Shown here: positions 28,001 to 46,963 of the stretch, in pieces | Layout: each line of letters opens with the position of its first letter | How positions within the stretch are numbered: the first letter of the stretch is position 1 | From: Desulfobacteraceae bacterium UBA2245 | Lineage (GTDB): Bacteria; Desulfobacterota; Desulfobacteria; Desulfobacterales; UBA2245 | DNA length: 64,000 nucleotides | Direction: 5' to 3' | Assembly (NCBI GenBank): GCA_002347265.1 | Contig: DDYB01000032.1 | Span: 193,389-257,388 of the forward strand | Position numbers and translations under genes: made by a program | The notes under the pieces: generated by a model | What the model saw: the letters and a program-made list of their open reading frames with translations, nothing else | Told to the model about the DNA's origin: nothing | Database searches by the model: none

Positions 28001-28092
28001 AATCCTCGCTGAAACCAGCGCGTGCCGTTAGCAAAAAGATAACAGGGGACGCATCCAGTTAAAAATTAAACGGAAGAAAGGAGATGTATTCC

Positions 28093-28947: not shown

Positions 28948-29068
28948 CATATTGTCAATCTGTCATGCTCAATTCGACGCCAAAAAGGTGCGAACACTCT
29001 GCCCTTTAGAGGTATTTTTTGACCAATTTATTTGAATGGATCACAAAAATTTATTAAGGAGAATGAAA

Positions 29069-29956
29069 ATGAAGCTCAAAAAGTTAGCAACCTGTTTCCG
29101 CTGTCTGGGATTTTTTGCACTCCTTTGCCTGATCACCGGTCTGGCAACCGCGCCGGCTGCTTTTGCGGCTGAACCGGCGCAGAAAAACATTATTCTGGCC
29201 ACTACGACCAGCACTCAGGATTCCGGCCTTCTGGACGCCCTGATTCCGATTTTCGAAAAGGAAACCGGTTATTTTGTCAAAACGATCGCCGTCGGTTCCG
29301 GTCAGGCCATGGCCATGGGAGAGAAGGGCGAAGCAGATGTCCTGCTGGTCCACTCCCCTGCCGCGGAAAAAAAATTTATGGAAGCGCAAAACGGGATCAA
29401 CCGCCGCCTGGTCATGCACAATGACTTCGTGATCGTCGGTCCTCCCGCCGATCCTGCCGGCATCAAGGGCTCCAAGACTTCTCCGGAAGCTTTTATGAAG
29501 ATTGCCAATACCGGCAACCTGTTTCTTTCACGGGGCGACAACTCAGGAACGCATTCCAAGGAAAAGGGAATCTGGAAAGCCGCCGGGCTTAACCCGGAAG
29601 AGCAGCCTTCGAAGTGGTATCAGCAGACCGGACAGGGCATGGGCCAGACCCTCAATGTCGCGGCCGAGAAACTGGGCTATACCCTCACCGACAGGGGAAC
29701 CTGGCTTGCCCTGCAGAAAAACCTCGGGCTTCCCATTCTCATGGAGGGCGATCCGCTCCTGCTGAACATCTATCACGTGATCGATGTCAATCCGGCCAAG
29801 TGGCCGAAAGTCAATGCACCCGGCGCCCGTGCTTTTTCCGACTTCATGGTTTCGCCCGCGACCCAGAGCATCATCAAAACCTTTGGCGTGGACAAGTACG
29901 GTTCTCCTCTGTTTTTCCCGGATGCGGACAAGAAAGTGGAGGACCTTGGAAAATAA
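29069..29956 (+). CDS. tupA: tungstate ABC transporter substrate-binding protein
   Basis: Signal peptide, canonical ATTTSTQDSG, SRGDNSGTH, HNDFVIVGP. AAGGAG RBS 7 nt upstream. Confidence 0.88.
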   Translation: MKLKKLATCFRCLGFFALLCLITGLATAPAAFAAEPAQKNIILATTTSTQDSGLLDALIPIFEKETGYFVKTIAVGSGQAMAMGEKGEADVLLVHSPAAEKKFMEAQNGINRRLVMHNDFVIVGPPADPAGIKGSKTSPEAFMKIANTGNLFLSRGDNSGTHSKEKGIWKAAGLNPEEQPSKWYQQTGQGMGQTLNVAAEKLGYTLTDRGTWLALQKNLGLPILMEGDPLLLNIYHVIDVNPAKWPKVNAPGARAFSDFMVSPATQSIIKTFGVDKYGSPLFFPDADKKVEDLGK

Positions 29957-30655
29957 ATGGAACTGATTCTTGAAGGCATCCTGAAGGCCATAGCGCTGCT
30001 TGTTTCCCTGGATCCGGAAGTCCTGGGAATCACTGCGCTCTCCCTGAAAATTTCAGGAACAGCCACCCTGATCAGTCTTTTTCTCGGCGTTTCAACGGGA
30101 ACCGTGGTGGCCCTCACCCGGTTCCCGGGCCGGAAACTAGTGGTCAGCCTGATCAATACCGGCATGGGGCTGCCGCCGGTGGTGGTGGGTCTCTTTGTCA
30201 CGATCTTCCTGTGGCGAAACGGGCCGTTGGGCTTTCTGCAAATCCTCTACACGCCCACGGCGATTATTCTTGCCCAGGCGATCATTGCCACCCCCATCAT
30301 CAGCGGAATCAGCCTGGCCGCAATGCAGAACCTTCCCGCCAACCTGCGTCTTCAGATCCTGGCACTCGGGGCTACCCGAATTCAGATGTTCTGGCTTCTC
30401 ATTCGGGAAGCCCGTCTGCCCCTGCTGGCCGCCGTCATGGCCGGATTCGGCGGGATCATTTCCGAGGTGGGGGCCTCCATCATGGTGGGCGGCAATATCA
30501 AGGGCTATTCACGGGTTCTCACCACAGCCACGGTCATGGAAACGGGACGGGGAAACTTTGACGTGGCCATTGCGCTGAGCGCCATTCTCTTGCTGCTGGC
30601 CTTTCTGATCAACTTTCTGCTGACACGGATCCAGCAGCGGGAGCGTCCCCGATGA
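29957..30655 (+). CDS. tupB: tungstate ABC transporter permease
   Basis: Binding-protein-dependent permease fold, immediately after tupA. Confidence 0.88.
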   Translation: MELILEGILKAIALLVSLDPEVLGITALSLKISGTATLISLFLGVSTGTVVALTRFPGRKLVVSLINTGMGLPPVVVGLFVTIFLWRNGPLGFLQILYTPTAIILAQAIIATPIISGISLAAMQNLPANLRLQILALGATRIQMFWLLIREARLPLLAAVMAGFGGIISEVGASIMVGGNIKGYSRVLTTATVMETGRGNFDVAIALSAILLLLAFLINFLLTRIQQRERPR

Positions 30656-31752
30656 CGGCCGCCGGTCCCCTTCTTCAGGTCAAAAATATCGTGGTGAAGC
30701 GGGGCGGAATTCCCGTTCTGGATATCCCCGACTTCAGGATCGAGCGGGGGGAGGTTCTGTCCCTGCTCGGACCGAACGGCTCCGGGAAATCCACGCTGCT
30801 TCTGACCTTGTCCAGCCTGTTGAAGCTGCACCAGGGCAAACTGATCTTCAAGGGCCGGGAGATTGACGGCCGCCGGAGCGAGCTGGACTATCGACGGCAG
30901 ATTGCCGTTGTATTTCAGGACCCGCTTCTTTTGGATACGACGGTGCTGGACAACGTGGCCTCCGGCTTGAAAATCCGGGGAATGGAAAAGGCGGGCCGTT
31001 TGCGGATCGCGGCGGAATACCTGGAACGCCTGGGAATCGCCCATCTGGCCAAACGATCCGCATCCAAACTCTCCGGTGGAGAGGCCCAGAGAACCAGTAT
31101 CGCCCGGGCCTTTGCGACCCGCCCGGCCATTCTTTATCTCGACGAACCCTTTTCCGCTCTGGATCCGCCCACGCGCGAAGCTTTGATCTCGGATCTCACC
31201 CGCATCCTCCGTGAAACGGACACCACGGCGGCCATTGCCACGCACGATCAGATGGAGGCCATGCGCCTTTCCGACCGCATGGCCGTTATCCAGCAGGGAA
31301 AGATCGCCCAGGCGGGCTCCGCGGAAGAGGTGATGAATCATCCGGTCAATGAATTTGTCGCCTCCTTTGTCGGAATGGACACGGTCCTGACCGGCAGGGT
31401 CCTGGAAAACCATAACAAGCACAGAATGATGATTGCCGTCGGCGATCGGGAGATCGAGGCCGTGGGGAATTTCCCTCCGGGAGAGCAGGTCCTGTGTTGC
31501 ATTCGTCCCGAAAACGTAACTCTCTCCACGGATTCACCCGAAGAACATAGCAGCGCCCGAAACAATTTTTCGGGCCGGATTGTGCGCATCGCACCCCACG
31601 GGCTTTTCTACCGCGTTGATCTTGACTGCGGTTTTGAGCTCATCTCCTACATCACCCGCATATCGCTGGACAGCCTGGCGCTCCGGGAAGGCCGGAAAGT
31701 CAAGGCCTCCTTCAAGGCCACCGCCGTCCATGTGATACGGAAATCGACATGA
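30652..31752 (+). CDS. tupC: tungstate ABC transporter ATP-binding protein with C-terminal TOBE domain
   Basis: GPNGSGKST, LSGGEAQR, LYLDEP, then a SARNNFSGRIV... TOBE-type tail. Confidence 0.88.
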   Translation: MTAAGPLLQVKNIVVKRGGIPVLDIPDFRIERGEVLSLLGPNGSGKSTLLLTLSSLLKLHQGKLIFKGREIDGRRSELDYRRQIAVVFQDPLLLDTTVLDNVASGLKIRGMEKAGRLRIAAEYLERLGIAHLAKRSASKLSGGEAQRTSIARAFATRPAILYLDEPFSALDPPTREALISDLTRILRETDTTAAIATHDQMEAMRLSDRMAVIQQGKIAQAGSAEEVMNHPVNEFVASFVGMDTVLTGRVLENHNKHRMMIAVGDREIEAVGNFPPGEQVLCCIRPENVTLSTDSPEEHSSARNNFSGRIVRIAPHGLFYRVDLDCGFELISYITRISLDSLALREGRKVKASFKATAVHVIRKST

Positions 31753-32032: not shown

Positions 32033-32863
32033 ATGGGACTTTGGCGCGAAAGGGACGGACGACGTCTGCATGTAAAGAGTAAACTGATGGGGGAAAGTCT
32101 GATCAGCAAATCGTTTATGGAAAGTTTCACTGTTGCTCCGCAACGGAGGCTTTTCCCGGATGTGAACATTATCAAGATCGGAGGTCAATCCATCTGTGAC
32201 CGGGGCGTCAAGGCCCTTCCCCCGATAATTGAAGAAATTGTGGCGAACAAGAAAGAGCACAAGATGCTCATCACAACAGGAGGCGGGACCCGCAGCCGGC
32301 ATATTTATTCCATTGGCCTGGAACTGGGCATGCCGACGGGCATCATTGCCAAATTCGGCAGCTCCATCTCGGAACAGAATGCGCTGCTGGTGTCCACACT
32401 GCTGTCTTCCTGGGGCGGAATCAAGATCGGACATGATGAGGTCATCAAACTGTCAACCTACTTCGCTCAGGGCTGCATCCCCGTCATGCACGGGATGCCT
32501 CCCTATGATTATTTCGCTTTGCCGGCAAAAGGATGGCGCATCCCCATTCACCGAACGGATGTAGGCACCCTGATTCTGGCGGACCTGATCGGAGCACGCA
32601 ACTGTATCTATGTAAAGGATGAAGAGGGGCTGTATACGGATGATCCCAAAAAGAATTCCGATGCCGAATTCGTCCCCGAAATCAGCGCGTCGGAACTTCT
32701 GGCACAGGACTTTGACGATTTGATCATTGAACGGCCCTGCCTTGAGATTCTGCAGAACAGCGAGGTTATCGACAGCATTCAGATTGTCAACGGCCAGCAT
32801 GCGGGCAACATCACCCGGGCATTGAAGGGCGAACATGTGGGAACCATAATTCATAAAGGATAG
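32033..32863 (+). CDS. molybdenum storage protein (MoSto, MosA/MosB)-like amino-acid-kinase-family protein
   Basis: The amino acid kinase fold (IIKIGGQS, LITTGGGTRSRH) and the C-terminal GEHVGTIIHKG closely parallel the Azotobacter MosB sequence as recalled (GEHVGTLIRTG). GGAGGGAG RBS. Confidence 0.78.
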   Translation: MGLWRERDGRRLHVKSKLMGESLISKSFMESFTVAPQRRLFPDVNIIKIGGQSICDRGVKALPPIIEEIVANKKEHKMLITTGGGTRSRHIYSIGLELGMPTGIIAKFGSSISEQNALLVSTLLSSWGGIKIGHDEVIKLSTYFAQGCIPVMHGMPPYDYFALPAKGWRIPIHRTDVGTLILADLIGARNCIYVKDEEGLYTDDPKKNSDAEFVPEISASELLAQDFDDLIIERPCLEILQNSEVIDSIQIVNGQHAGNITRALKGEHVGTIIHKG

Positions 32864-33189: not shown

Positions 33190-34335
33190 TTACAGCTCGG
33201 CGATGATTTTGCCCGTGACGGCGGCCTCGTAGCCGGGAATCGCATCGATCTCTCTGCGCAGGGCCGCGGACTGGAGGACGTCCAGAAGGATTTTGACCGT
33301 GGGGTGACCGATCAAGTCGCCAGGAATGACTAGGTCGCACCGGACAGCCGTGATGGGAACGAAATCCAGGCTGAAAGCTTCGGCAATGGCCCTTAATCCC
33401 AGGGCGGCATCGGCCACGCTGCAGGCAACGCGGTAGGCGCCTTCGCGGTGGGAGGTCACTTCGTTACGATATCCACTGATGGCAGTTGTATTCACACCGG
33501 CGCTTTGCAGACAGTCGTCCAGCAGAATCCGCAGGGCCGCGCCCGGCTCACGGTTGACAAAACGAACCATGGGTCTGGCGAGATCGATAACGGAATGAAT
33601 GCCCAGAGGATTGCCCCTGGCCACCATCAAGCCCTCCTCCAGAAGCGAAAATCCCAGAATGCTTCCGTGTACTCCCGCCAGTTTCTGGCTGGCCAGGACC
33701 ACATTGGACTCCGTTTTGCCCGTGTTGTGCAGATGGATTCCGGCCACATGGGTCAAGCCTTCGGCCAGAGCGTTGAGAGCGCGATGAGTTGAGGCGAACC
33801 GGCAGTGTACGCGCGCGTCGGGCGCCATACGGGAAACGTAATGGGCGAGGATCTCAAAGGCCGGATCACAGCCCATCAGAATGAGGGTCTTATCGAGACA
33901 GCGCGAATGTGAAAAGATCTGCGCGCTTTTTCCGTCCCGGGTCAACAAGCCGTCCGCCGGGCGCAGGCCGAATCCAACGGACTCAGGACCCTGCAGAGAA
34001 ATACCCACCAGTCGATCACGGACCATCCCCAAAGCCAGCCGGGATGATGGCGCCTTTTGACCGTTGATTACATGAACTGGCCGCGTGTTTGGGGGTTCCT
34101 GTTCGGTGAACAGATCTTCCACCCGGCATTCGAAAATGCGGGCCAGACGAAGCGCGATGGCGGTATTGGGCAGATATCGCCCGGATTCAATGTCGTAAAT
34201 CGCCTGGCGCCGAACGTCGATTTCCTCGGCCAGCTTTTCCTGAGACCATCCCCTGGCCAGGCGGAATTGCTTGACCTTGCACGTAATGGCGTTGCTTTGT
34301 CGGGTCATAGGCCTTTTCTGTTCAAGTTTTGTCAT
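33190..34335 (-). CDS. XRE-family HTH regulator fused to a PBP-like (molybdate/tungstate-binding-type, PF12727-like) sensor domain
   Basis: N-terminal RLARGWSQEKLAEEIDVRRQAIYDIESG HTH. The C-terminal 250 aa follow the PBP_like pattern (GCDPA..., VAGIHL, VNREPGAALRILLD, ADAALGLRAIAEAF). Confidence 0.75.
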   Translation of the reverse strand: MTKLEQKRPMTRQSNAITCKVKQFRLARGWSQEKLAEEIDVRRQAIYDIESGRYLPNTAIALRLARIFECRVEDLFTEQEPPNTRPVHVINGQKAPSSRLALGMVRDRLVGISLQGPESVGFGLRPADGLLTRDGKSAQIFSHSRCLDKTLILMGCDPAFEILAHYVSRMAPDARVHCRFASTHRALNALAEGLTHVAGIHLHNTGKTESNVVLASQKLAGVHGSILGFSLLEEGLMVARGNPLGIHSVIDLARPMVRFVNREPGAALRILLDDCLQSAGVNTTAISGYRNEVTSHREGAYRVACSVADAALGLRAIAEAFSLDFVPITAVRCDLVIPGDLIGHPTVKILLDVLQSAALRREIDAIPGYEAAVTGKIIAEL

Positions 34336-34562
34336 TCCCCTGAGAAAATTTTATTGACCAATTTCATATCGTATGCAATGAGTTTCTGTCAAATGACAAT
34401 TAAAAACGTCATAATTGCATAAATTATACTTCAAACATTATATGATGTTGTTTTGGTCCAAATTGCAACAGCAGTTTTCAAGCGGTCAGCCCGAATGGCA
34501 TCGATCATCGAAACAGACGCCGCATGCCATTCAGACTGCCTCAAGGGAGAAATTCACAGGAA

Positions 34563-35288
34563 ATGAACGATATTTACAATGAATTGAAGCGGAGAGCGGC
34601 AAATGTTCTGGCGGCCCATCATCTGCTCGGAGAGAAGGTAGCTGTCAAAGCCCGAGCATTAAGCCCGACAGAGGCTATCGGAAATCCGGAAGCGGATGAT
34701 TTTCCGATTCAGAAAGGCAAGGAACGATTGATGCAGGCGGACATTCGGGGCGCTTTGGGCCAGGCGTTCACCGATCAATTTGGTGATTTTGAGGGAACTC
34801 TGGAAGAAATTCTGTCCGCCGAGCTGAACAGCAATTACCGCCGGGCAATTTTTGTGGCTGCATTGAACGCAGCTTTGCGTCATCTCAAGTTGATCAACGG
34901 CACCGTTCACTGCCGTGACGAGGAACCCAGACAGTGTGCCGAAGCGCTGGCGGATCATATTCAGAACCGCCATGGGAATGTAAAAATTGTCCAGATCGGC
35001 TTTCAGCCGAGAATGATAGAGTCTCTGTCTTCCCGGTTCACGATGCGGGTTCTGGATATGGACCGGGACAATATCGGCTCCCGCAAGTGCGGCGCCCTGA
35101 TCGAATCTCCCGAGGCCGCGGAAAAGGCCTTGGCCTGGGCCGACCTGCTGCTGGTGACCGGAACGACGCTTGTTAACGGCACCCTGCCGGCCTTTGTGGG
35201 TTCAAAGCCGGTACTCTTTTACGGAACCACCATTGCCGGGGCGGCTCACCTGATGGGGTGGGAGCGTTTTTGTCCGCGCAGCGCCTGA
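34563..35288 (+). CDS. DUF364/DUF4213-type putative heavy-metal chelation protein
   Basis: N-terminal enolase-N-like and C-terminal Rossmann-like pattern (VKIVQIGFQP..., DLLLVTGTTLVNGTL), directly upstream of modA. Confidence 0.65.
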   Translation: MNDIYNELKRRAANVLAAHHLLGEKVAVKARALSPTEAIGNPEADDFPIQKGKERLMQADIRGALGQAFTDQFGDFEGTLEEILSAELNSNYRRAIFVAALNAALRHLKLINGTVHCRDEEPRQCAEALADHIQNRHGNVKIVQIGFQPRMIESLSSRFTMRVLDMDRDNIGSRKCGALIESPEAAEKALAWADLLLVTGTTLVNGTLPAFVGSKPVLFYGTTIAGAAHLMGWERFCPRSA

Positions 35289-35445: not shown

Positions 35446-36246
35446 ATGAAATTTAAGAAACGTTTGTTATCTTTGTTGGCAGGGATGTTGCTGGTGCTGA
35501 CCGGCTTGGGGATGGATGCTTTCATCGGGAGCGGGGCTGTTGCGGAAACCGAGCTGCTCGTATTTGCCGCAGCCTCAACTACCGATGTCATCACCGAAAT
35601 CGGAGATCTGTATATGACCCGGGATCTAGGGCGCGTCAAGCCCTCATTTGCCTCATCATCCACGCTGGCCAAGCAGATTGCCAGCGGAGCGCCGGCCGAT
35701 ATTTTTCTTTCGGCCAATCCAAAGTGGATGGACTTTCTTGAAGAAAAAAATTTGCTGTTCAAAGAGACTCGATTCGATCTTCTGGGCAACCGGATTGTGC
35801 TGATTGCTCCGGCGGACAGTGCGTTGGGGCAGATCGATGTGGCGCCCGGACTTTCTCTGGCTGATCTTCTGGGAAAGGACGGGCGGCTGTCCACGGGTGA
35901 TCCGGACCATGTGCCGGCCGGCATGTACGGGAAAGAAGCGCTGCAGAACCTCGGCGTCTGGGATCAGGTCAAGGATCGTCTGGCCCCGATGAAAGATGTT
36001 CGAGCGGCCCTGGTCCTGGTGGAGCGCGGGGAAGCGCCCCTGGGACTGGTTTATGCCACCGATGCCGTTGTTTCCAAGAAGGTTCGCGTGGTCGGCACTT
36101 TCCCGGCCGACAGCCATCCGCCGATCGTTTATCCCGTGGCTGCGGTGTCCGGCGGGAAGACCTCCGAGGCCAGGCAGTTTATGGAGTTTCTGAAATCTCC
36201 GGAAGCTCGCGCGATTTTTGAAAAATATGGTTTTGAAGTGCGTTGA
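35446..36246 (+). CDS. modA: molybdate ABC transporter substrate-binding protein
   Basis: Signal peptide, VFAAAST, typical ModA length and sequence. Confidence 0.9.
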   Translation: MKFKKRLLSLLAGMLLVLTGLGMDAFIGSGAVAETELLVFAAASTTDVITEIGDLYMTRDLGRVKPSFASSSTLAKQIASGAPADIFLSANPKWMDFLEEKNLLFKETRFDLLGNRIVLIAPADSALGQIDVAPGLSLADLLGKDGRLSTGDPDHVPAGMYGKEALQNLGVWDQVKDRLAPMKDVRAALVLVERGEAPLGLVYATDAVVSKKVRVVGTFPADSHPPIVYPVAAVSGGKTSEARQFMEFLKSPEARAIFEKYGFEVR

Positions 36247-36944
36247 TGGACTTTTTTCGCCTGACATCGATGGAACTGGAAGCCCTGAGGCTGAGCCTGT
36301 GGGTGTCCGTTTGGGCCGTGGCCGCCAGTCTGCCCTTTGGCATTCTGGCGGCCTGGGTTCTGGCGCGCCTGCGTTTTCCCGGCAAAAGTCTTCTGGACGG
36401 CCTGGTGCATCTGCCGCTGGTATTGCCGCCGGTAGTGATGGGCTATGTGCTGCTGGTGATGCTCGGCCGCAACGGAGTCATCGGCGCGTTGTTGTATAAG
36501 TATCTGGGCGTTGTTTTCGCGTTTAACTGGAAAGGGGCTGCACTGGCCGCTGCTGTCATGGCATTTCCTTTGCTGGTCCGAGCGGTTCGACTGTCTCTTG
36601 AAGGAGTGGACTCCGGACTGGAAGCTGCAGCGCGTACTTTAGGGGCCGGTCCGGTGCGTGTATTTTTTACGGTCACGCTTCCCCTGATGGCGCCGGGAAT
36701 CATTACCGGCGTCATTCTTGCCTTTGCGCGCAGCCTGGGTGAATTCGGCGCCACCATCACCTTTGTATCCAACATTCAGGGACAAACCCAGACCCTGCCG
36801 CTGGCTCTTTACACCCTGACCCAGGTTCCGGACGGCGAAATGGGCGCCATGCGGTTATGTATTATTTCGATGCTGATCGCCATGGCGGCGCTGGTATGTT
36901 CTGAAATTCTGGCCCGGCGTTTTGCCGCCCGCTTGAAAGGATGA
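36243..36944 (+). CDS. modB: molybdate ABC transporter permease
   Basis: ARSLGEFGATITFVSNIQGQTQTLPLALY ModB signature. Confidence 0.92.
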   Translation: MMDFFRLTSMELEALRLSLWVSVWAVAASLPFGILAAWVLARLRFPGKSLLDGLVHLPLVLPPVVMGYVLLVMLGRNGVIGALLYKYLGVVFAFNWKGAALAAAVMAFPLLVRAVRLSLEGVDSGLEAAARTLGAGPVRVFFTVTLPLMAPGIITGVILAFARSLGEFGATITFVSNIQGQTQTLPLALYTLTQVPDGEMGAMRLCIISMLIAMAALVCSEILARRFAARLKG

Positions 36945-36950
36945 TTCGTT

Positions 36951-38066
36951 TTGGAGATCAGCGTGAGGCGCAAACAGGGAAATTTCGGGATCGATGCCTC
37001 TTTTCATGGGGCTGAATCGGGAGTGACCGCACTTTATGGTCCGTCAGGCGCCGGAAAAACATCAATCGTCAATATGGTGGCCGGTTTGACGCGACCCGAT
37101 GCCGGTCGCATCGCCATCAACGGTCTTTGTCTGTTTGATTCGGCCCAGCGCATCGATCTGCCGCCGGAAAAGCGTCGCATCGGCTATATTTTTCAGGACG
37201 GCCGTCTGCTGCCCCACCTTTCGGTGCGTTCCAACCTGAACTTCGGAATGCACCGGACGCCGGCAGGCCGGCGTTTTGTACATTTTGACCAGGTTGTGGA
37301 TCTTCTCGGCATCGGCCATCTGCTCCATCGCCGGCCGGCCAAACTTTCCGGCGGCGAGAAACAGCGCGTGGCCATCGGACGGGCTCTGTTGACCAGCCCG
37401 GCCATGCTGCTCATGGACGAGCCTCTGGCCTCCCTGGACTCAGCCCGAAAGGCCGAGGTGCTGCCCTTTATCATGCGTTTGGGCCGTGAGTTTTCCATTC
37501 CCATTCTCTACGTCAGTCATGCCATGGATGAAATACTCAATCTGGCGACTCATATGGCAATAATGGAAGAAGGCCGCGTCCTGGCCTGCGGAAACATAGA
37601 GGATCTTTTGTCCCGCTCGGACCTGCAGACCTTTTTCGGAAGAACGGAAATCGGAACGGTGATTTCAACAGTGGCCGAGAATCCGAAAGATTCCTTCGGT
37701 CTGGCCCACCTGCGTTTTGGCGGCAGAATTCTGAAAGTGCAGGGCATTCAGGCAGCCCCGGGCGCCCTGGTGCGGGTGCGCATTCCGGCCAGTCATGTTG
37801 CGATTGCGCTGAAAGCGCCCGAACAGACCAGCCTGCAGAACATTTTCCCCGGAATAATTTGCGAGATACTGGATCAGGGTGCACATTTCGTGGAAGTGCG
37901 TCTGGACATCGGGTGCGCTCTTTGGGCCCGTATCACCCGCCAATCCTGCTTGAATCTGGATCTGAAGCCAGGTCTGCCCGTTTTTGCATTGATCAAGAGC
38001 GTTGCGGTTTCTCTGGGCGCATCCACCCGAATTGGAACACCGGACTTCATGACATCCTGTTTGTAG
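36951..38066 (+). CDS. modC: molybdate ABC transporter ATP-binding protein with TOBE domain
   Basis: GPSGAGKTS, LSGGEKQR, LLMDEP, C-terminal TOBE-like region. Confidence 0.9.
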   Translation: MEISVRRKQGNFGIDASFHGAESGVTALYGPSGAGKTSIVNMVAGLTRPDAGRIAINGLCLFDSAQRIDLPPEKRRIGYIFQDGRLLPHLSVRSNLNFGMHRTPAGRRFVHFDQVVDLLGIGHLLHRRPAKLSGGEKQRVAIGRALLTSPAMLLMDEPLASLDSARKAEVLPFIMRLGREFSIPILYVSHAMDEILNLATHMAIMEEGRVLACGNIEDLLSRSDLQTFFGRTEIGTVISTVAENPKDSFGLAHLRFGGRILKVQGIQAAPGALVRVRIPASHVAIALKAPEQTSLQNIFPGIICEILDQGAHFVEVRLDIGCALWARITRQSCLNLDLKPGLPVFALIKSVAVSLGASTRIGTPDFMTSCL

Positions 38067-38353
38067 CCGGGTGTTTGAGAAATAAGATTCAAACCTTTCT
38101 CGGACACAATTCGCATTGGATGCAATGCTTCCGAATGCATTGATTTTCCGCTATCCCCCATCAATCGATTCCTGATTTCCCATCCTGTTTTTTATTATGT
38201 TTTTTATTGACATCGAGGGATTGTATGGTATTTAACTGTGCCTTATATGACATATATCAGGATCGGCATATTGAGACTTTTTCAAGCCGTAAAATATATT
38301 TTGTACCGTGATGAAATGAATCGGTAATAAACATATTGCGAAAGGAGTTTCCA

Positions 38354-40027
38354 ATGTTTAACGGCAATACCCGCATGATTTCGGAAAATCATCAAATCGG
38401 TTCGTATTCCTTTGAAGATTATATGGATCTGGTCAAATCATTTCACGGGTATGCTGCGCCCGGCGTTATCATTGGAGGCTTCATGGTCGATCTGGCGCTG
38501 AAAAATCTTCCGGACGGAGAGTTTTTCGATGCCGTCTGTGAAACAACCGCATGCCTGCCGGACGCCATTCAACTGCTGACGCCCTGCACGCTTGGCAACG
38601 GCTGGCTCAAGGTTTACGACTTCAACCGGTATGCGCTGACCATGTACAACAAGGAGAATGGAAAGGGCGTGAGAGTTGCTCTGAGCACTTCGGCGGTTCG
38701 CGTCTGGCCCGATATCAACAATTGGTTTTTCAAGCTTAAAACCAAGAAGGAACAGGACCCGCAGCGACTGAACGAGGCGATCAAGAATGCAGGCCATAGC
38801 ATATGCAAGATGGAGCAGGTCGAGGTGAATTCCGAGGTACTGAAGCGCAAATCCAGAGGAGGCGTCGCCGTTTGCGCCATATGCGGGGAATCCTTTCGAA
38901 CGAACGGGGGAACCGTCTGCCGTGCCTGTCATGGAGAGATGTATTACCGGACTTCCGTCGGGGCCGCTCAGATTTTGAATGCGCCCAGTATGCCTGCGCT
39001 CAAATCCACACCGGTCGAACAGGCCGTGGGGCTTGCCGCACTTCATGACATGACGGAAATCATTCCCGGCAAGCTGAAGAAACCTGTTTTTAAGCGGGGA
39101 CAGGAGCTCTCCATCGGAGATGTCTGCCACCTGCAGCGGATGGGAAAAAATCATGTTTATCTGAGTCAGGAAAATCCGGTCGGAGATGAATGGGTCAACG
39201 AGGATCAGGCGGCAATAGCCTTTGCCGCGGCCATGACAGGGCCGGGCGTTGCCGTCGGCGGCAAGCCCAGCGAAGGTAAGGTGAATCTGGAAGCGACCCT
39301 GGACGGGCTTCTGGTGGTTGAAGTCGAGCAGTTGAAACGGTTTAATCTGGTTCCGGAAGTCATTTGCGGATGCCTGAAAAACTTCACGCAGGTTTCCAAG
39401 GGCCAGAAGTTTGCGGCGACCCGTGCCATTCCTTTGTTCATGCGGCGGGAAAATCATACCCGGGCCCTGGATGTTCTGACTGAAAAGCCGCTGTTTAAAG
39501 TCCTTCCCATGCGCAAGGCTTCCGTCGGCCTGCTGGTGACCGGCGAGGAGGTGGCCAAGGGGTTGGTGGAGGACAGATTCATTCCGATCCTGGAAAAGAA
39601 GCTCAAACGCTATGACTGCCGGATTGTCGGAAAGGAAATTGTTCCCGACGACCGCGGAAAAATTTCATCCGCCGTGACCCGCATGATTCAAGCCGGCGCC
39701 GATATGGTGATCGCAACGGCGGGAATGTCGGTGGATCCGGATGATTGTACGCGCCAGGGAATCATCGATGCAGGCGCCTCCCAGATTCTTTACGGCGCTC
39801 CGATTGTTCCCGGCGCCATGATTATGCTGGCCCAGATCGACTCGGTTCAGGTTTTTGGCGTTCCGGCATGCGCCCTGTATTTCGATGTCACCAGCTTCGA
39901 TCTCCTCCTGCCCCGGCTTCTGGCGGGCGTTCCTGTCACAAGGGAAGATCTGGCTCAGATGGGACACGGGTCTTTCTGTCAGGAATGCAAGGTCTGTGTT
40001 TTTCCCCGTTGTTCCGTCGGCAGATAA
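38354..40027 (+). CDS. fusion protein: FmdE-like domain + zinc ribbon + MoeA-like/MoCF-biosynthesis (molybdopterin-binding) domain
   Basis: N-terminus FHGYAAPGVIIGG...CLPDAIQLLTPCTLGNG (FmdE pattern) and CAICGE...CRAC. C-terminal half has an MoeA-like start (TPVEQAVGLAALHDM) and an MoCF domain (GLLVTGEEV...ADMVIATAGMSVDPDD). Confidence 0.7.
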   Translation: MFNGNTRMISENHQIGSYSFEDYMDLVKSFHGYAAPGVIIGGFMVDLALKNLPDGEFFDAVCETTACLPDAIQLLTPCTLGNGWLKVYDFNRYALTMYNKENGKGVRVALSTSAVRVWPDINNWFFKLKTKKEQDPQRLNEAIKNAGHSICKMEQVEVNSEVLKRKSRGGVAVCAICGESFRTNGGTVCRACHGEMYYRTSVGAAQILNAPSMPALKSTPVEQAVGLAALHDMTEIIPGKLKKPVFKRGQELSIGDVCHLQRMGKNHVYLSQENPVGDEWVNEDQAAIAFAAAMTGPGVAVGGKPSEGKVNLEATLDGLLVVEVEQLKRFNLVPEVICGCLKNFTQVSKGQKFAATRAIPLFMRRENHTRALDVLTEKPLFKVLPMRKASVGLLVTGEEVAKGLVEDRFIPILEKKLKRYDCRIVGKEIVPDDRGKISSAVTRMIQAGADMVIATAGMSVDPDDCTRQGIIDAGASQILYGAPIVPGAMIMLAQIDSVQVFGVPACALYFDVTSFDLLLPRLLAGVPVTREDLAQMGHGSFCQECKVCVFPRCSVGR

Positions 40028-40115
40028 CCGGCGGCCGGGTTGTGTTTGGTTCTTTTGACATGGAAGAAAATGTTCAGGCGGTTTCTGCCTGAGCGGGTTT
40101 TAAGGAGTGGATTCG

Positions 40116-40538
40116 ATGCAATCGATCAGACCCGTTTTACGGCTGCACATGTGGCTGGAAACCGATGAGGGACTGGTATTTGGTATTGGCCGCGCCAAGC
40201 TGTTGCATAATGTTGCGGAATACGGTTCCCTGAAAAAGGCTGCTGAGGCTCTGGGGATGTCCTACCGGGCGGCGTGGGGAAAGATTAAACAGTCCGAGGC
40301 GGTTCTGGGAAGCCCGTTGATTCAGAAGACCGGCAGCAATCGCAGCGGGTATGAACTGACGCCCTTTGGCAAGGGCATCACTCAAAAATTCATGTCCTGG
40401 TTTGACAGGGTTGAAAAAAACGCACTTGAGGAAGCTGCCGCCACTTTTCCCTGGATGTCCGAACCCTATCAGGAAGAGCGTGTTTTGGAAGAAAGCGACG
40501 CACCTTCTTCAGACGGTGATGAAAAGTTTTCTGAATGA
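40116..40538 (+). CDS. ModE N-terminal-domain-like wHTH regulator lacking Mop/TOBE domains
   Basis: GSLKKAAEALGMSYRAAWGKIKQSE... matches the ModE DNA-binding domain pattern. The C-terminus is a short acidic tail instead of di-Mop. Confidence 0.75.
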   Translation: MQSIRPVLRLHMWLETDEGLVFGIGRAKLLHNVAEYGSLKKAAEALGMSYRAAWGKIKQSEAVLGSPLIQKTGSNRSGYELTPFGKGITQKFMSWFDRVEKNALEEAAATFPWMSEPYQEERVLEESDAPSSDGDEKFSE

Positions 40539-40604: not shown

Positions 40605-41483
40605 TTAAAACCCAACCTCTATGCCGCTTTTAAATCCCGTTTCCGCCGCCTTGATGTCCAGATGCGGGGTTGAAATATATTCCAGGGGCGGGTAAATTTC
40701 CCGGCCTGCTTTTCGAGTATCCACCGTCTTGATGTATTTTCCGCACTTGTCGCAGACATCCAGCCGGTGTTCTTCTTCGCTTTCAATTTCGAAATAGTGA
40801 AGGGTGTTGTGGTCCGTGTTGTCGCAGAATGGGCAGAAGATTCTTTTCGTCGCCCATTTGTGCCAGCAGAAGCTGCATGAGAAGAACCGCTTTCCGTTTT
40901 CCTCGAATATCGAAATCGCCGGGGGTGATCCGCAGATCGGACAGTACCCTTTTTCCCAGGGCAGATTCTTGTCAAAATGGGTTGAAAGCTGCTCCGCGCA
41001 CCGGGCCAGCGACGGTTTCACGCTGCTGTAAACAATGAAACCCAGCGTCTTGTTGTCGATTTTAAGCTCGTCGGAGACTTTTTGAAAATACTCCTCGTCG
41101 GATTTCAGAAAAGCGGCAAAAAGCGTTTCTAAATCCAGTTTTCCGGCTTCCACGGCCTTACCGATCGCTCCGGCGGACTTAGACATTGCGCCGGATGTCT
41201 GCTGTACGATTTCGCACAGATTTTTGAACAGTGCCGCGGCTGCCTTGGAATCGATTGCAAACTGCGAGATGTCGATTAGCGGAAACTGTTCCTTTACCTT
41301 TAAAGCCAGGGTGTCTGCGGAGATCTTCAAAGGTTCGATACGGGTCTGATTTGCCGAATCCTCCTGAGCGATAAAAATCTTTTCATAGAAATCGAGCAGG
41401 TCGGAATAATTCGGCTTCAGCTTTCGGATTTCTTCCAGCGCGCTTAAGATCCGGCCGGAGGATGAATCTGTGTTTTCGGGCAT
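40605..41483 (-). CDS. fdhE: formate dehydrogenase accessory protein FdhE
   Basis: CPICGS...CSFC...CPFC...CDKCGKYIK rubredoxin-like Cys pairs typical of FdhE. Confidence 0.88.
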   Translation of the reverse strand: MPENTDSSSGRILSALEEIRKLKPNYSDLLDFYEKIFIAQEDSANQTRIEPLKISADTLALKVKEQFPLIDISQFAIDSKAAAALFKNLCEIVQQTSGAMSKSAGAIGKAVEAGKLDLETLFAAFLKSDEEYFQKVSDELKIDNKTLGFIVYSSVKPSLARCAEQLSTHFDKNLPWEKGYCPICGSPPAISIFEENGKRFFSCSFCWHKWATKRIFCPFCDNTDHNTLHYFEIESEEEHRLDVCDKCGKYIKTVDTRKAGREIYPPLEYISTPHLDIKAAETGFKSGIEVGF

Positions 41484-41567
41484 AAAACACTCCAATCTCG
41501 TTGATGCATGTGAAAAAGGGAGGGAGATTCACATCTCCCTCCCTTTCTGATGATGGATCCTATCGGG

Positions 41568-42311
41568 TTATCCCAGCAGGTTTCTGACAGACCGCTTCAG
41601 GGGCGCCGTCATCTTGGCGAGGGCGGCCATCCGCGAGATGCCCGCCGGACCCTGTGCTACCAGATTCTTGTGATAGAACTCCGGTTTGTCCGTGATCAGG
41701 TAAATGACCCGGACCTCTTCCGCGTCGATCAACTGGGCCTCGGGATAGTCTTTCTTGACAACGGCGAGACGTTTTTTCGCTTCTTCAAGCATTTTCTCCC
41801 GGTCTCCAAAGGTGATCGCCGAGGTGGGGCAGGCCTTTGCGCACATGGGAATGAGCCCTGCGGCCACACGCTCGTAGCACATATCGCATTTGTTGATAAT
41901 TCCGGTGGCGTCGTCGCGTCTCGGAATATCATAGGGGCATGCGCTTTTCATCTCGTCGAAGGCCTCTTTGGGCAGCTGTTTGGCTTTGTCGGTGTAAACC
42001 ACAGCGCCCGTGGCTTCGTCGAAGACGACGGCGCCCTGCATATAGCCGTCGGCCATGTCTTTGCAGGGCGGCTGCAGGCAGTGGCGGCACTGGTCGCTCA
42101 TGAAGTTCCACGTAACCGTGTCGCCGATTTTATGCTCCTGAAAACGAACGATCTTAAAGTTTTTGGGATTCAGGTCGGGTGGATTCTGATGGCTACCCCA
42201 ACCGATCTGCGTGGTCTTGTTTGCAGCGAATCCCTGCCATTCCTTGCAGGCGACCTGGCATCCCCGGCACGCCGTGCACCGTGTTACATCGATCAAAAAT
42301 GTCTTTGACAT
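41568..42311 (-). CDS. fdhB: formate dehydrogenase iron-sulfur (beta) subunit
   Basis: Multiple 4Fe-4S motifs (CTACRGCQVAC, CRHCLQPPC, CDMCYERV, CAKACP). Confidence 0.88.
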   Translation of the reverse strand: MSKTFLIDVTRCTACRGCQVACKEWQGFAANKTTQIGWGSHQNPPDLNPKNFKIVRFQEHKIGDTVTWNFMSDQCRHCLQPPCKDMADGYMQGAVVFDEATGAVVYTDKAKQLPKEAFDEMKSACPYDIPRRDDATGIINKCDMCYERVAAGLIPMCAKACPTSAITFGDREKMLEEAKKRLAVVKKDYPEAQLIDAEEVRVIYLITDKPEFYHKNLVAQGPAGISRMAALAKMTAPLKRSVRNLLG

Positions 42312-42370
42312 GTTGTTTCTCCCTTTTTAATAAACGGGCGGGCAAGGGCCGCCCGCCCGTTTTTTTGATC

Positions 42371-45300
42371 TTATGACAGTTCGGTCAACTTGTCCGCCTT
42401 CTTGAGGTTGACGCAGCAGGCCTTGTATTCAGGAATGGAGGTGTTTGGATCACCCGCCGATACGCACAGGCGGTTGGTTGCATCGCCCACTCCGGGAGTG
42501 GTCCAGCCAAAGGCAAAGGGCATTCCAATTTCGTGAACGGTCTTGCCCTGGATCTTGAACGGAGTCATGCGCATGGTGACCATGGCCACGGCTTCGACTC
42601 TTCCTCTGGCGCTCTCAACAATTACGCCGTCGCCGTTCTTGATTCCCTTTTCCTTGGCCAGTTCCTCGCTCATCTCAACGTAGAGCTGGGGTTCGGCTTC
42701 CAGCAGGGAGGGTACATTTCGCGTTTCCCCGCCGCCGCACCAGTGTTCCGTCAGGCTGTAGGTGGTCAGAACGATGGGATACTTCGAATCACCGGGCGTC
42801 GCCCGCTTGTCCATATCGCTCTCAATAATCTTGGCGCAGGGGTTGCTGAGCTGCTTGGAGAAGGGGTGCTTCTTGACCGGGGTTTCGATCGGTTCGTAAT
42901 GCTCGGAGAATGGTCCTTCCTCGCGTCCGGGGCCGTAGAGAGCGCCGTGTCCTTCCTTCTGCATGATGAAGGGATATTTGCCCTTGCCGGTCGCCATCGG
43001 CGGCCAGCCGCCGTCCGGAACATCGCCGATCCATTTGCTTCCATCCCACTCGATGACGACTCGGGTCGGATCCCAGGGCTTTCCGTTCAGGTCGACCGAA
43101 GCCCGGTTATACAGGACTCTCCGGTTGACCGGCCAGCACCAGGAATAGCCCGGGAAGAGGCCGATTTTTGCCTGAAGATCGGTCTGGGACAGGTCGCGAT
43201 TCTTCATCTTGTTGCCCGCTTCTTCCGTATAGCTTCCGGTGTAGAGCCAGTTCCGGGAGCTGGTCGATCCGTCGTCGGCCAGATTGGCGAAGCTGGGCAC
43301 CAGGGACCCCGCCTTGTACGTCTTGTCTTTAATGGTGGTGTCTTTGAGGAAGAAACCGTTGCATTCTTTTGCGATTTGATCTGCATCAAAATGGGAGGGC
43401 CAGTTCAGATTCACAATCGGTTCCGGAAATACGCCGCCTTCTTCCCTGTAAAGCTTTCTTACCGCGTTCATGATTTCCACCATGGTCTCGCCCATGGATT
43501 TGGATTCGCCCGCCGGTTCGGCGGCCTTATAATGCCACAATACCCAGCGTCCGCTGTTGCTGATGCTGCCTTCCTTTTCCACGCGGTGGCAGGCTGGGAA
43601 CAGGAACACTTCGGTTTTGATGTCCTTGGGATTGACCCCAGGGCGGTGCCAGAAATCGGTGGTCTCGTTTTGATGAATTTCGGAGATATACAGCCAGTCG
43701 AGGTTGTCCATCGCTTTCCGGACCTTGGTGGTGTTGGGTATGCTCTGGGCCGGGTTGTGCGCCCAGATCGAGCCGCCCTTGATTTTCCCCTTGTACATCC
43801 GGTCGAATATATGCAGGTGTGAGTAGTCGCCCTGCACCAGGCCTTTCGGGGTATCGCCTTTCGGAACCCAGCTATAACCGAAATCGTTTTCCGGAGTTGC
43901 TGCTTCGCCGAACCAGGATTTCAGCAGGCTGACCACGTATTTCGGGCGGTTTTGCCACCAGTTGGCGCTCAGAGGATCATTGCTGATCGGAGTGTTCGCC
44001 TTCTGATAGTCTGCCAGCGTGGGCCAGTGGGCGCGGGGCACCGAATGGTAGCCGGGCAGGATATGATAGAGGATGCAGTGGTCGGTGGAACCCTGAACGT
44101 TGGGTTCGCCGCGTAGCGCGTTGATGCCGCCGCCGGCAACGCCTATGTTGCCCAGCAGGAGCTGAACGATCGCGCTGGTCCGGATGTTCTGGACGCCGAC
44201 CGTATGCTGGGTCCATCCCAGGGCGTACATGACTGTGCCGGCCTTGTCCTTTTGTCCGGTCGCGGCATACGTCTCATACACCTTGAGCAGGTTTTTCTCT
44301 GAAACGCCGGTGATCGCCGAAACATTCTTTAAATCGTACCGGGAATAGTGTTTTTTCAGAAGCTGGAACACGCATTTCGGATTCTTCAGGGTTTTATCTC
44401 TTTTCGGAACCCCGTTGGCATCCACGGCAAACGCCCAGGCTTTTTTATCGTAAGTGCTCAATTTCTTGTCAAAGCCGGAAAACAGGCCGTCTTTGAAACC
44501 GAATTTGTCTCCGACGATGAAAGATGCGTTGGTGTATTCGGTAACGTATTCCTTGAAATATTTCTCTTTGTCGATGATGTATTTGATCATGCCGCCCAGA
44601 AACGCGATATCCGTTCCGGAGCGAAGGGGTACGTGAAAATCAGACCGTGCCGAGGTTCTGGAGAATTTGGGGTCCACATGGATGATGGTGGCTCCTCTTT
44701 CTTCCCTGGCCTTCATAACCCATTTGAAGCAAATGGGGTGATGCTCGGCAGCATTGCTGCCCATAATCAAAGCACAGTCCGTGTTTTTAATATCAATCCA
44801 GTGATTGGTCATCGCGCCGCGTCCGAACGACTCTCCCAGAGCCGCAACAGTTGCGCTGTGTCAGATACGGGCCTGATGATCCATGTGAACGACGCCCATC
44901 GCACGCAGTGCCTGATGAACGACGGAGCATTCCTCGTTGCTCATCTGGGAGGAGCCCAGGTGAAAAATTTCCTCCACCCGGTTGACGACCTGTCCGCTTT
45001 CGTTGGTGGCTTTAAAATTCTTGTCGCGGGTGTCTTTGATATTCCGCGCCAATTTTTCCAGCATCCACTCCCAACTCTTTTCTTCCCACTTGTCGCTGTA
45101 CGGAGCGCGGTACTTGGGCTTCAGGACCCGGTGGTGGCTGTTGATCATGGAATTCATGGTCGCGCCTTTTGCGCAGAGGGCGCCTTCGCTGACCGGATAG
45201 CCCGGATCGCCTTCGGTGCTCACAACCTTGCCGTCCCTTACATGCGCAATGTAATGGCAGCATACTGAACAGAACGGGCAGATCGAGATGACTTCCTTCG

Positions 45301-45427
45301 CGCCCTTGATCTTCAGCTCCTTTGCATACGCATTTGCTGGGGCCAGAGCGAAACCCAGCTGGCTCAGGGCGATTGTCGCCGCCCCGGCGCCGGTTACCTT
45401 CATAAAAACTCGCCGTGTTACATCCAT
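42371..45427 (-). CDS. fdhA: periplasmic formate dehydrogenase catalytic subunit, selenocysteine-containing (in-frame TGA at 44861..44863)
   Basis: ORFs 44861..45571 and 42371..44812 are in the same frame. Reading through the TGA gives ...HMDHQARI-U-HSATVAALGESFGRGAMTNHW, the canonical Sec context. Tat signal MDVTRRVFMK with a GGGGAGG RBS. Confidence 0.92.
44827..44845 (-). promoter_or_regulatory. candidate SECIS hairpin downstream of the UGA(Sec) codon
   Basis: The mRNA reads GCGGCUCU-GGG-AGAGUCGU (8 bp including one G-U), starting 19 nt from the U of UGA. Confidence 0.45.
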
Positions 45428-45884
45428 TAGTTGCCTCCCCTCTTTCAATTGTCTTGCTGATGATTTGTAACCTGCAACCTTTTCAGCGCTTTTACCAGGA
45501 TCACGCCGCTTCCGTTTGCTGCCGGAGAAAATTTTCACCGAATAGACGCGCCGCGAGTTCTGATATGACAAAGCGTCGAGTTATCATTTACGGAACCACT
45601 CAGTTCAAATTGAATACTTGATACAGGAGAATCGAATTGTCAAGGCTTTTTGGAATAAAAATTCAATAATTTTAATATGTTACGAATAGCATATATCGGG
45701 GGCGGCTGGCAGAACAGTACGTGCTTTCGGAAAATAATTTGACATCGGATAAGTAATATGTCATTTTTGACATAAATGAAAAACAGCTTCCACGCATTCA
45801 AATTCATGGATTTCAGGCTTCCGGAGCATGAAATGCGGAATATTGAAAAATGATGGACCTGTAAGAATCAGAAAGGAGAAGACA

Positions 45885-46208
45885 ATGCATATGATCCGGA
45901 AGGACAAAATAAGAGCAACAGACATCGGGACCGCGGCGCCTGTCATTAGGCGTCTGGGTTTTGATATGAAGCCGGTCGCGGCCTACGCATCAAGTCTGAA
46001 AGTCCAGGGCGTTCGGGAGATGAGTTGCATCTGCCCGCTTTGCTCCGCCGGCTGTCACTGTATTGCCCACGTGCAAGGCCGTGAGGTCGTCAGAACCGAA
46101 GGCGAGGCCGGCGATCCGGTCGGAAACAGCGAATGCGCCCTGCGCTCAAAAGGCGCCGCCATGCTGCCTGTGATCGCGGCGGAACTGAACATCCTCAGCG
46201 GAAAATAA
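45885..46208 (+). pseudogene. relic of the N-terminus of a second FdhA-type catalytic subunit (107 codons, then stop)
   Basis: SSLKVQGVREMSCICPLCSAGCHCIAHVQGREVVRTEGEAGDPV aligns with fdhA KELKIKGAKEVISICPFCSVCCHYIAHVRDGKVVSTEGDPGYPV. The twin-arginine motif is lost and nothing follows after about residue 107. Confidence 0.55.
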
Positions 46209-46582: not shown

Positions 46583-46963
46583 ATGAAAAATATCGATACA
46601 ACGATGCGTATCCGTTTGTGGTTTGAGACCGACAGCCAGATGTTGTTCGGCCTGGGCCGGGTCCTGCTGTTGAAAAAAGTCGATGAGTGCGGATCACTTT
46701 ACAAGGCGGCAAAGGAAATAGGGATGTCCTACCGCGCCGCCTGGGGGAAAATCAAAGCCACCGAAAGCGAACTCGGCGTCAAACTGCTCACGAAAGCTCC
46801 GGGTGAAAAGCGGTACCGTCTGTCCGAAAACGGCCGGCTTCTGCTGGATAATTTTGATGCATGGTGCCGCGACATCGAGGAGATGGCGCTTCAAAAGGCC
46901 CGGAATATCTTCCCCTGGCAAATCCGCAAATTCGATACAAAAGAAATAAATAACATTCCGTGA
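46583..46963 (+). CDS. ModE N-terminal-domain-like wHTH regulator lacking Mop/TOBE domains (second copy)
   Basis: GSLYKAAKEIGMSYRAAWGKIKATE... is a paralog of 40116..40538. Confidence 0.75.
   Translation: MKNIDTTMRIRLWFETDSQMLFGLGRVLLLKKVDECGSLYKAAKEIGMSYRAAWGKIKATESELGVKLLTKAPGEKRYRLSENGRLLLDNFDAWCRDIEEMALQKARNIFPWQIRKFDTKEINNIP

Follow-up and report, generated by a model that had tools for sequence, protein, structure and literature searches.

An FmdE–MoeA-like fusion protein of Desulfobacterota as a candidate factor in the maturation or hand-off of the molybdenum/tungsten cofactor

Among the described proteins of the FmdE family, SYN_00638 from Syntrophus aciditrophicus (PDB 3D00) formed a domain-swapped dimer in the crystal and has a Zn(Cys4) treble clef, and the core of its subfamily lacks two of the four canonical FmdE zinc ligands, the crystal binding an anion instead (PMC2954224). 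The same 2010 structure paper considered a chaperone, a regulatory or a metal-transport function for FmdE, and already listed an architecture in which FmdE is joined to a MoeA-like part (PMC2954224). In 14 acetogens, fwdE is the only conserved gene outside the Wood–Ljungdahl pathway, and its role is unclear (PMC5039349). Here we describe a gene with the FmdE–MoeA-like architecture, located in a 64-kb stretch of contig DDYB01000032.1 from Desulfobacteraceae bacterium UBA2245 (the whole analysed stretch is hereafter called “the window”). The encoded fusion protein is neither a formylmethanofuran dehydrogenase subunit nor a canonical MoeA. Its genomic neighbours suggest that it helps to build or deliver the Mo/W cofactor of formate dehydrogenase (FDH) and related enzymes, and we assign a probability of about 0.5 to the reading that it is a maturation or hand-off factor for the Mo/W-pterin cofactor.

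The gene lies in a single unbroken open reading frame (ORF; 38336–40027, + strand). The start codon is the ATG at 38354, preceded 7 nt upstream by an AAGGAG box, and the stop codon is the TAA at 40025–40027, yielding a protein of 557 amino acids (38354–40027, +). The chain begins with an FmdE alpha+beta core of the 3D00 subfamily (aa 30–157; 38441–38824, +), which matches Pfam PF02663 with an E-value of 2.6e-37 and 128.3 bits against a cut-off of 22.9. This is followed by an FmdE-type treble-clef zinc finger (zf-Tbcl_FmdE, PF23475; aa 165–198; 38846–38947, +; 38.8 bits against 23.2) and by a region remotely like MoeA domains I and II (aa 216–388; 38999–39517, +), which hhalign and Foldseek align with MoeA and which has no Pfam match. 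Next in the chain is a MoCF_biosynth domain, the equivalent of MoeA domain III (PF00994; aa 393–522; 39530–39919, +; 64.6 bits against 26.6), and the protein ends in a four-cysteine motif delineated from alignments, C542-x2-C545-x2-C548-x4-C553 (39977–40012, +), hereafter called the “Cys4 tail”. A first-pass annotation of this DNA had proposed FmdE, zinc-ribbon and MoCF-fold assignments, and all three Pfam families score above their curated cut-offs. The motifs it quoted are all found and are invariant in our alignment of 28 homologues: F30-H31-G-Y-A-A-P36-G37 and C67-LPDAIQ-LLTP-C78-T-x-G81-N-G83 in the FmdE core, and the four cysteines C174xxC177...C189xxC192 in the zinc finger. The C-terminal cysteine cluster that it pointed out is the C542xxC545xxC548x4C553 tail, which is likewise conserved in 28/28 of the aligned fusion homologues. 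The full-length AlphaFold model has a pTM of 0.54 with uncertain domain packing, and its inter-domain geometry was not used.

The fusion is a real gene and not an assembly artefact. Public data hold more than 1000 full-length homologues (540–560 aa, with the same three Pfam domains), and scanning one genome per species gave the full-length fusion in at least 581 species-level genomes, mostly of Desulfobacterota, this total being a lower bound. Cultured carriers include Bilophila wadsworthia, Desulfacinum infernum, Desulforhabdus and strain NaphS2. The full-length orthologues are 49–95% identical, and the closest relative among the matches listed is a Desulfobacterales metagenome-assembled genome with 95% identity and an identical gene order. 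A frameshift or an assembly chimera that joined two genes, the artefact about which the first-pass annotation was wary, is ruled out by the continuous ORF and by the full-length orthologues in these genomes. Together with such a chimera, a subunit of formylmethanofuran dehydrogenase (Fmd) is a vanishingly improbable explanation, although some sources call members of the family “formylmethanofuran dehydrogenase subunit E”. The hosts are Desulfobacterota, and fwd/fmd catalytic genes did not appear among the window ORFs or in the recurrent gene clusters of 80 related loci, a survey that did not extend to a dedicated profile search of every ORF; on this ground, we rejected the Fmd-subunit reading. 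The NCBI name of the fusion protein is “FmdE family protein”, and some database entries are plainly misnamed or uninformative, giving the fusion as “trehalose-binding protein” and stand-alone FmdE as “tRNA CCA-pyrophosphorylase”.

The N-terminal part closely resembles 3D00. Residues 14–196 of the fusion are 47–49% identical to SYN_00638 (Foldseek/MAFFT; phmmer 2e-62), and the Foldseek comparison of the FmdE part with 3d00 gives an E-value of 4.4e-19 and a TMt of 0.76. Both proteins possess the FHGY(P/A)APG variant without two of the zinc ligands, and the zinc-finger cysteines of the fusion align with the Zn(Cys4) treble clef of 3D00. The canonical FmdE zinc motif FHGHxC does not occur in the fusion core, which has FHGYAAPG in that place, as in the zinc-free 3D00 subfamily. 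In contrast, the two chains end differently: 3D00 is a 190-aa stand-alone protein that stops right after the zinc finger, while the fusion chain runs on into the MoeA-like module.

The first-pass annotation had described the C-terminus as MoeA-like, a description that holds in part. The MoCF_biosynth domain is clear and the relationship of domains I and II is remote, while domain IV, the lysines aligned with K275, K279 and K282, and a family-level MoeA score are all missing. Only the middle MoeA domain is directly recognizable, because MoeA_N (PF03453) and MoeA_C (PF03454) give no Pfam match at E<=10 with either aa 216–557 or aa 216–388; of the Pfam domains that had been proposed for a check, PF02663 and MoCF_biosynth were thus recovered and MoeA_N was not. 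With the MoeA equivalog model NF007960, the protein reaches 30.3 bits, where 440 is the cut-off. At the level of profiles, the module family aligns colinearly with canonical MoeA (hhalign 95%; module 12–316 to MoeA 39–335), and the domain I/II region has weak matches to residues 28–73 and 150–179 of Pyrococcus horikoshii MoeA. The model of the module alone is confident (pLDDT 87.6, pTM 0.82), and its best PDB neighbours in Foldseek are gephyrin E, Cnx1E and MoeA, with an E-value of ~1e-10 over ~340 aligned columns and a TM of ~0.3; over all Foldseek comparisons with MoeA and gephyrin E, the E-values range from 1e-8 to 1e-10. As judged from this model, the module and MoeA domains are related, and their arrangement appears to differ.

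The MoCF_biosynth domain aligns with residues 168–316 of E. coli MoeA, a stretch containing E188, D228, D259 and K279, which were targeted in mutant structures of the E. coli enzyme. The invariant residues E399, D432 and D464 of the fusion align with E188, D228 and D259, while K275, K279 and K282 are replaced by G481, V485 and A488. The protein lacks MoeA domain IV, where R350 and S371 lie, and the ~35 residues following domain III are the Cys4 tail, which occupies the position of the missing domain. As the acidic domain-III residues are kept and the aligned lysines and domain IV are gone, the module is best regarded as a non-canonical MoeA paralogue. Membership in MogA/MoaB is sub-threshold only (TIGR00177, 49.5 against 85.35; NF006932, 18.6 against 158), and MogA/MoaB are single MoCF_biosynth domains, while the fusion protein is multi-domain. 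The Cys4 tail is modelled with low confidence in both predicted models, the full-length protein and the module alone. We presume a likeness between this cysteine-rich tail and the Mo-Fe-S motif of NifQ.

The module is not confined to the fusion. A HMMER search with aa 205–557 retrieved 1380 cluster representatives at E<1e-10, most of them stand-alone proteins of ~340 aa that the sources name “molybdopterin-binding protein”. They align end to end with residues 13–353 of the module, with E-values down to 3.7e-121. The stand-alone proteins, exemplified by those from Desulfotalea (WP_011188962), Clostridium tyrobutyricum and Sporomusa, are homologous to the whole module at <=55% identity and share the GG(L/F)CxxCxxCx4CxFG tail with the fusion; unlike the fusion, they lack the FmdE and zinc-finger parts. 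The Cys4 tail is found in 39/55 of the stand-alone homologues. On these alignments, the module represents a distinct, widespread ~340-aa family of MoeA paralogues that coexists with canonical MoeA.

These features bear on the idea, following the metal-selecting step suggested in the first-pass annotation, that the module is itself a metal-selecting insertase, which inserts W or thiolated Mo/W into molybdopterin (MPT) and thereby sets the W-versus-Mo choice of FDH, the Cys4 tail standing in for the lysine/domain-IV oxyanion site of MoeA. The MoeA homology and the kept counterparts of E188, D228 and D259 speak for such an enzyme, the gene is accompanied in the window by both tupABC-like and modABC transporters, the hosts are anaerobes of sulfidic habitats, and dedicated W-specific MoeA paralogues are known, such as M. 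extorquens MoeA1 (PMC13197769). However, the module has lost the lysines corresponding to K275, K279 and K282 and lacks domain IV with R350 and S371, a pattern that, at the sequence level, does not favour a canonical oxyanion insertase. Moreover, ~30% of the stand-alone homologues do without the Cys4 tail, and a canonical MoeA is encoded beside the module in several genomes, and therefore the module would be an addition to MoeA rather than its replacement. We consider an insertase function rather improbable.

Where do the module and the fusion reside in other genomes? In a Sporomusa operon, the stand-alone module lies in the order moaA-moaC-moaB-MOSC-[module]-moeA...mobA-mobB, and in a Syntrophomonadaceae genome the order is mobA-[module]-moeA-mobB-moaA-MOSC. 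Other stand-alone modules adjoin aldehyde oxidoreductases of the xanthine dehydrogenase (XDH) family, and elsewhere the module is fused to MobB or to MoaC. For the fusion, we counted neighbours in the 80 related loci, taken with flanks of up to 7 kb (individual loci are cited below by their L numbers). A catalytic gene for an enzyme with the Mo/W-bis(pyranopterin guanine dinucleotide) cofactor (bisPGD) occurs near the fusion in 55/80 loci; it adjoins the fusion at 27 loci and is no more than three ORFs away at 45. The fdhD gene lies <=2 ORFs from the fusion in 10 loci and modABC in 11, while canonical moeA is adjacent in 2 and <=2 ORFs away in 3. The partner enzymes are selenocysteine FDHs of the periplasm and of the cytoplasm, Psr/Phs-like enzymes, cytoplasmic bisPGD proteins of ~700 aa, and one MOP-type aldehyde oxidoreductase. 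A conserved ~700-aa cytoplasmic Mo/W-bisPGD protein with an N-terminus like MSKKRVYSICGMCTVRCPIQV is encoded directly downstream of the fusion in L006, L029, L030, L045, L067 and L077.

The FmdE half on its own has a similar setting. The stand-alone FmdE with zinc finger of the 3D00 subfamily in S. aciditrophicus belongs to an FmdE-fdhE-fdhGHI gene group divergent from moaA/moaE, and in L090 the order is fdhA(Sec)-FmdE-fdhD. The FDH link drawn in the first-pass annotation therefore stands insofar as both the fusion and stand-alone FmdE occur near fdhA, fdhD and fdhE, and has to be widened, since the fusion is associated with Mo/W enzymes in general and not with FDH alone. Furthermore, FmdE–module fusions involve two FmdE subtypes, the zinc-type IHGHLCPG and FHGYAAPG, which suggests a recurrent functional coupling of the two halves.

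The maturation or hand-off reading rests on several associations: the module lies in biosynthetic operons and is fused to MobB and to MoaC, the fusion is found next to fdhD, fdhA and moeA, and FmdE parts of two independent subtypes have been joined to the module. FdhD is a sulfurtransferase and a chaperone for the bis-molybdopterin guanine dinucleotide cofactor (bis-MGD), and passes sulfur and cofactor to FdhA with a cysteine pair. We propose the following mechanism. The fusion protein would be a dimer, in which the MoeA-like module may hold a pterin intermediate (MPT-AMP, metal-MPT or bis-MGD), and the thiolate-rich tail may carry sulfur or else a metal, the latter in a thio-Mo/W species or in an Fe-S cluster. 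Docking would fall to the FmdE/zinc-finger unit, which would bring the complex onto FdhD or onto the apo catalytic subunit, and the finished W/Mo cofactor could thereby be channelled to FDH and to other bisPGD enzymes. Expression may be coupled to the Mo/W supply via a ModE-type operator and a co-transcribed helix-turn-helix (HTH) protein.

That HTH protein opens a different view of the fusion. The gene directly downstream (40107–40538, +) encodes a winged-HTH protein like the ModE N-domain: Pfam HTH_1 passes its cut-off, while ModE_repress (TIGR00637) reaches 46.8 bits, below the cut-off of 98.5, and neither Pfam nor NCBIfam found a Mop/TOBE domain in it. Its true start is likely the ATG at 40116, and it is probably co-transcribed with the fusion gene. 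In 17/72 loci, a ModE-like HTH gene lies immediately downstream of the fusion on the same strand. The fusion could thus be the ligand-sensing partner of this Mop-less HTH protein, to which it would report the Mo/W or cofactor status, the HTH being predicted to bind CGTTATGTCA-N4-TGACATAACG-type operators before the fusion gene, modA and fdhA. In two Nitrospirota proteins of ~690 aa (P0293 and P0133, encoded at 8001–10085 of L093 and L094), the same HTH is even built into the one polypeptide, between the FmdE/zinc finger and the module. P0133 retains the zinc-type motif IHGHLCPG, the FmdE part of both proteins is of that type, and the genes stand alone ahead of a two-component system, with a nap operon nearby in L094. 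The means by which single-domain ModE proteins sense Mo “is not clear” (Rodionov 2004, PMC545781), a gap that such a partner would fill. Over the whole 64 kb, Rfam at gathering thresholds found no Moco (molybdenum cofactor) riboswitch, tRNA or other RNA family, and the lack of a riboswitch suits a protein sensor.

The operators were found by k-mer enrichment across the upstream regions of orthologues, whereas a generic inverted-repeat search of promoter regions was unproductive. The enriched palindrome is of the type CGTTATGTCA-N4-TGACATAACG. In 919 kb of related loci, its core pattern is found at 25 sites, where shuffled sequence gives 0.95, and nearly all of these sites are intergenic and lie upstream of modA, fdhA or the fusion gene. 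Under a strict pattern (TATGnYA-N3-7-TRnCATA), the operator precedes at least 15 orthologous fusion genes. The window has two strict matches in the intergenic region upstream of fdhA, TATGTTACGAATAGCATA at 45676–45693 and TATGTCATTTTTGACATA at 45757–45774, both between fdhA and the genes for an fdhA fragment and a second HTH protein. About 100 nt 5′ of the fusion start codon, the AT-rich palindrome TATATGACATATAT (38244–38257) fails the strict pattern and may be a degenerate ModE-type operator; the exact 9-mer ATATGTCAT occurs in the window only in this palindrome and at 45756–45764. A sigma-70-like promoter match, TTGAGA-18-TATATT (38271–38300, +), follows it, and is a consensus match only, with 9 such sites against 5.2 expected in the scanned region. 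Neither the Nitrospirota tri-fusion loci nor the S. aciditrophicus locus contains the operator pattern.

These operators do not discriminate a maturation factor from a sensor, because ModE control of biosynthetic genes is normal. Other observations are at odds with a sensor. Stand-alone modules lie in biosynthetic operons, and the MobB and MoaC fusion partners are enzymes and not regulators. The HTH is missing from the neighbourhood of most loci, and the tri-fusion is rare, forming one cluster among the 150 representatives listed. Even in the tri-fusion proteins, the module retains all of its motifs, including the acidic MoeA residues. Sensing on behalf of the HTH protein is, in our estimation, the main alternative, if a tentative and unlikely one.

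Several points nevertheless weigh against the fusion as a maturation or hand-off factor. That the module binds a pterin, that the Cys4 tail carries metal or sulfur, and that the protein touches FdhD or FdhA are inferences. The built-in HTH of the tri-fusion and the downstream HTH gene suit a regulatory role at least as well. About one third of the 80 loci have no Mo/W gene nearby, as in Bilophila (L063), where the fusion lies beside ftsK and lolA, and rigid-body superposition of the module on MoeA fails (TM ~0.3). Finally, our literature searches on the fusion returned the 2010 structural-genomics note and no functional study.

In the window, the fusion gene is placed between transport and FDH genes. 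The molybdate ATP-binding cassette (ABC) transporter genes modA, modB and modC (35446–38066, +) are directly upstream, and modA and modC score above their NCBIfam cut-offs (modC, 36951–38066; TIGR02142, 433.6 bits against 285). Beyond the HTH gene, a periplasmic FDH is encoded on the opposite strand by an fdhE-like gene, fdhB and a selenocysteine fdhA (40605–45427, −). The fdhA product scores 1088 bits against 814 with TIGR01553, and its selenocysteine codon is the in-frame TGA at 44861–44863, within “DHQARI*HS”. These profile scores bear out the position given in the first-pass annotation, between modC and a ModE-like gene and near an fdh operon. A tblastn search of the 64-kb window with FdhD, MoeA and MoaA gave no match, and thus no cofactor-related gene other than the fusion lies beside the fdh operon.

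Further genes of the window are recorded here as side observations. A second oxyanion ABC transporter is encoded upstream (28084–31752), with two TupA-like binding proteins, a permease and a TOBE-containing ATPase; the TupA-like proteins score 171 and 243 bits with NF041772, below its cut-off of 400. Together with modABC, it provides the locus with tungstate-type and molybdate-type uptake. A 276-aa protein of the amino-acid-kinase family (32033–32863) has only sub-threshold matches to UMP kinase, and recurs beside the fusion gene in L021, L037 and L066 with 74–76% identity; the Azotobacter Mo-storage protein shares the fold of this family. The gene at 33190–34335 (−) encodes a regulator with an XRE-type HTH and a PBP_like domain, the latter matching the C-terminal half of the archaeal MoeA-PBP model NF011068 with 143 bits. 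We take this regulator to resemble the tungstate-responsive TunR type, although a literature search for TunR gave only unrelated papers. A DUF364 (“putative heavy-metal chelation”) gene (34524–35288) directly precedes modA and is retained in L001, the closest relative.

On the far side of fdhA, a 126-aa ORF (45828–46208, +) matches just the first ~100 positions of the formate dehydrogenase alpha subunit, covering the Tat signal and a 4Fe-4S cysteine motif. It is probably left over from a second FDH; two tandem fdh operons are present in the 95%-identical relative (L001). On the far side of the fdh operon, there follows another HTH protein with a ModE N-domain only (46583–46963, +; TIGR00637, 49.8 bits), and the locus therefore encodes two Mop-less ModE-like proteins. 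An 805-aa ORF (51284–53701, +) matches no Pfam family at E<=1e-5.

What would these assignments mean? The fusion joins FmdE physically to a MoeA-type module, and the genomic context connects it with fdhD, fdhA, moeA and mobAB. One gene thereby brings together the function of FmdE, the maturation of W/Mo-dependent FDH in anaerobes, and metal sensing by HTH-only ModE proteins. If the fusion were a sensor, it would amount to a new type of cofactor-sensing transcription switch controlling modABC, fdh and its own gene, and would explain how single-domain ModE proteins sense metal, a question open since 2004 (PMC545781). If it is a maturation factor, it could have practical value as an overlooked one, since W/Mo-dependent FDHs are sought-after CO2-reduction catalysts, with heterologous maturation as a bottleneck (PMC13396061). 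Relative to the previously listed architecture, the present analysis adds three elements: it defines the C-terminal module as a MoeA-paralogue family of its own with a Cys4 tail, it places both halves consistently in an FDH and Moco-operon context, and it brings out the link to a ModE-type operator and HTH protein, on which the first-pass annotation had not remarked.

Among the known systems, MoeA, Cnx1E and gephyrin E are the best structural and profile neighbours of aa 216–535, and the MoCF_biosynth domain shares the motifs TGxE, PDD and GG(M/V)SV..D with MoeA; the fusion differs from MoeA in its extra Cys4 tail and its lack of domain IV. FdhD has no sequence relationship with the fusion and shares its genomic niche, lying close to the fusion in the 10 loci counted above and beside stand-alone FmdE in L090. 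The operators share the CGnTAT...ATAnCG frame with the E. coli ModE consensus and with a Geobacter site (PMC545781). While full-length ModE consists of an HTH and a di-Mop molybdate sensor, the HTH protein of the window matches the ModE N-domain only, and the fusion protein, if it were the sensor for this HTH, would use an unrelated fold, unlike full-length ModE. MobB-MoeA (NF011060) and the archaeal MoeA-PBP_like protein (NF011068) are precedents for joining a MoeA module to a next-step or oxyanion partner. These precedents use a complete MoeA, whereas in the protein of the window the partner of the MoeA-like module is FmdE.

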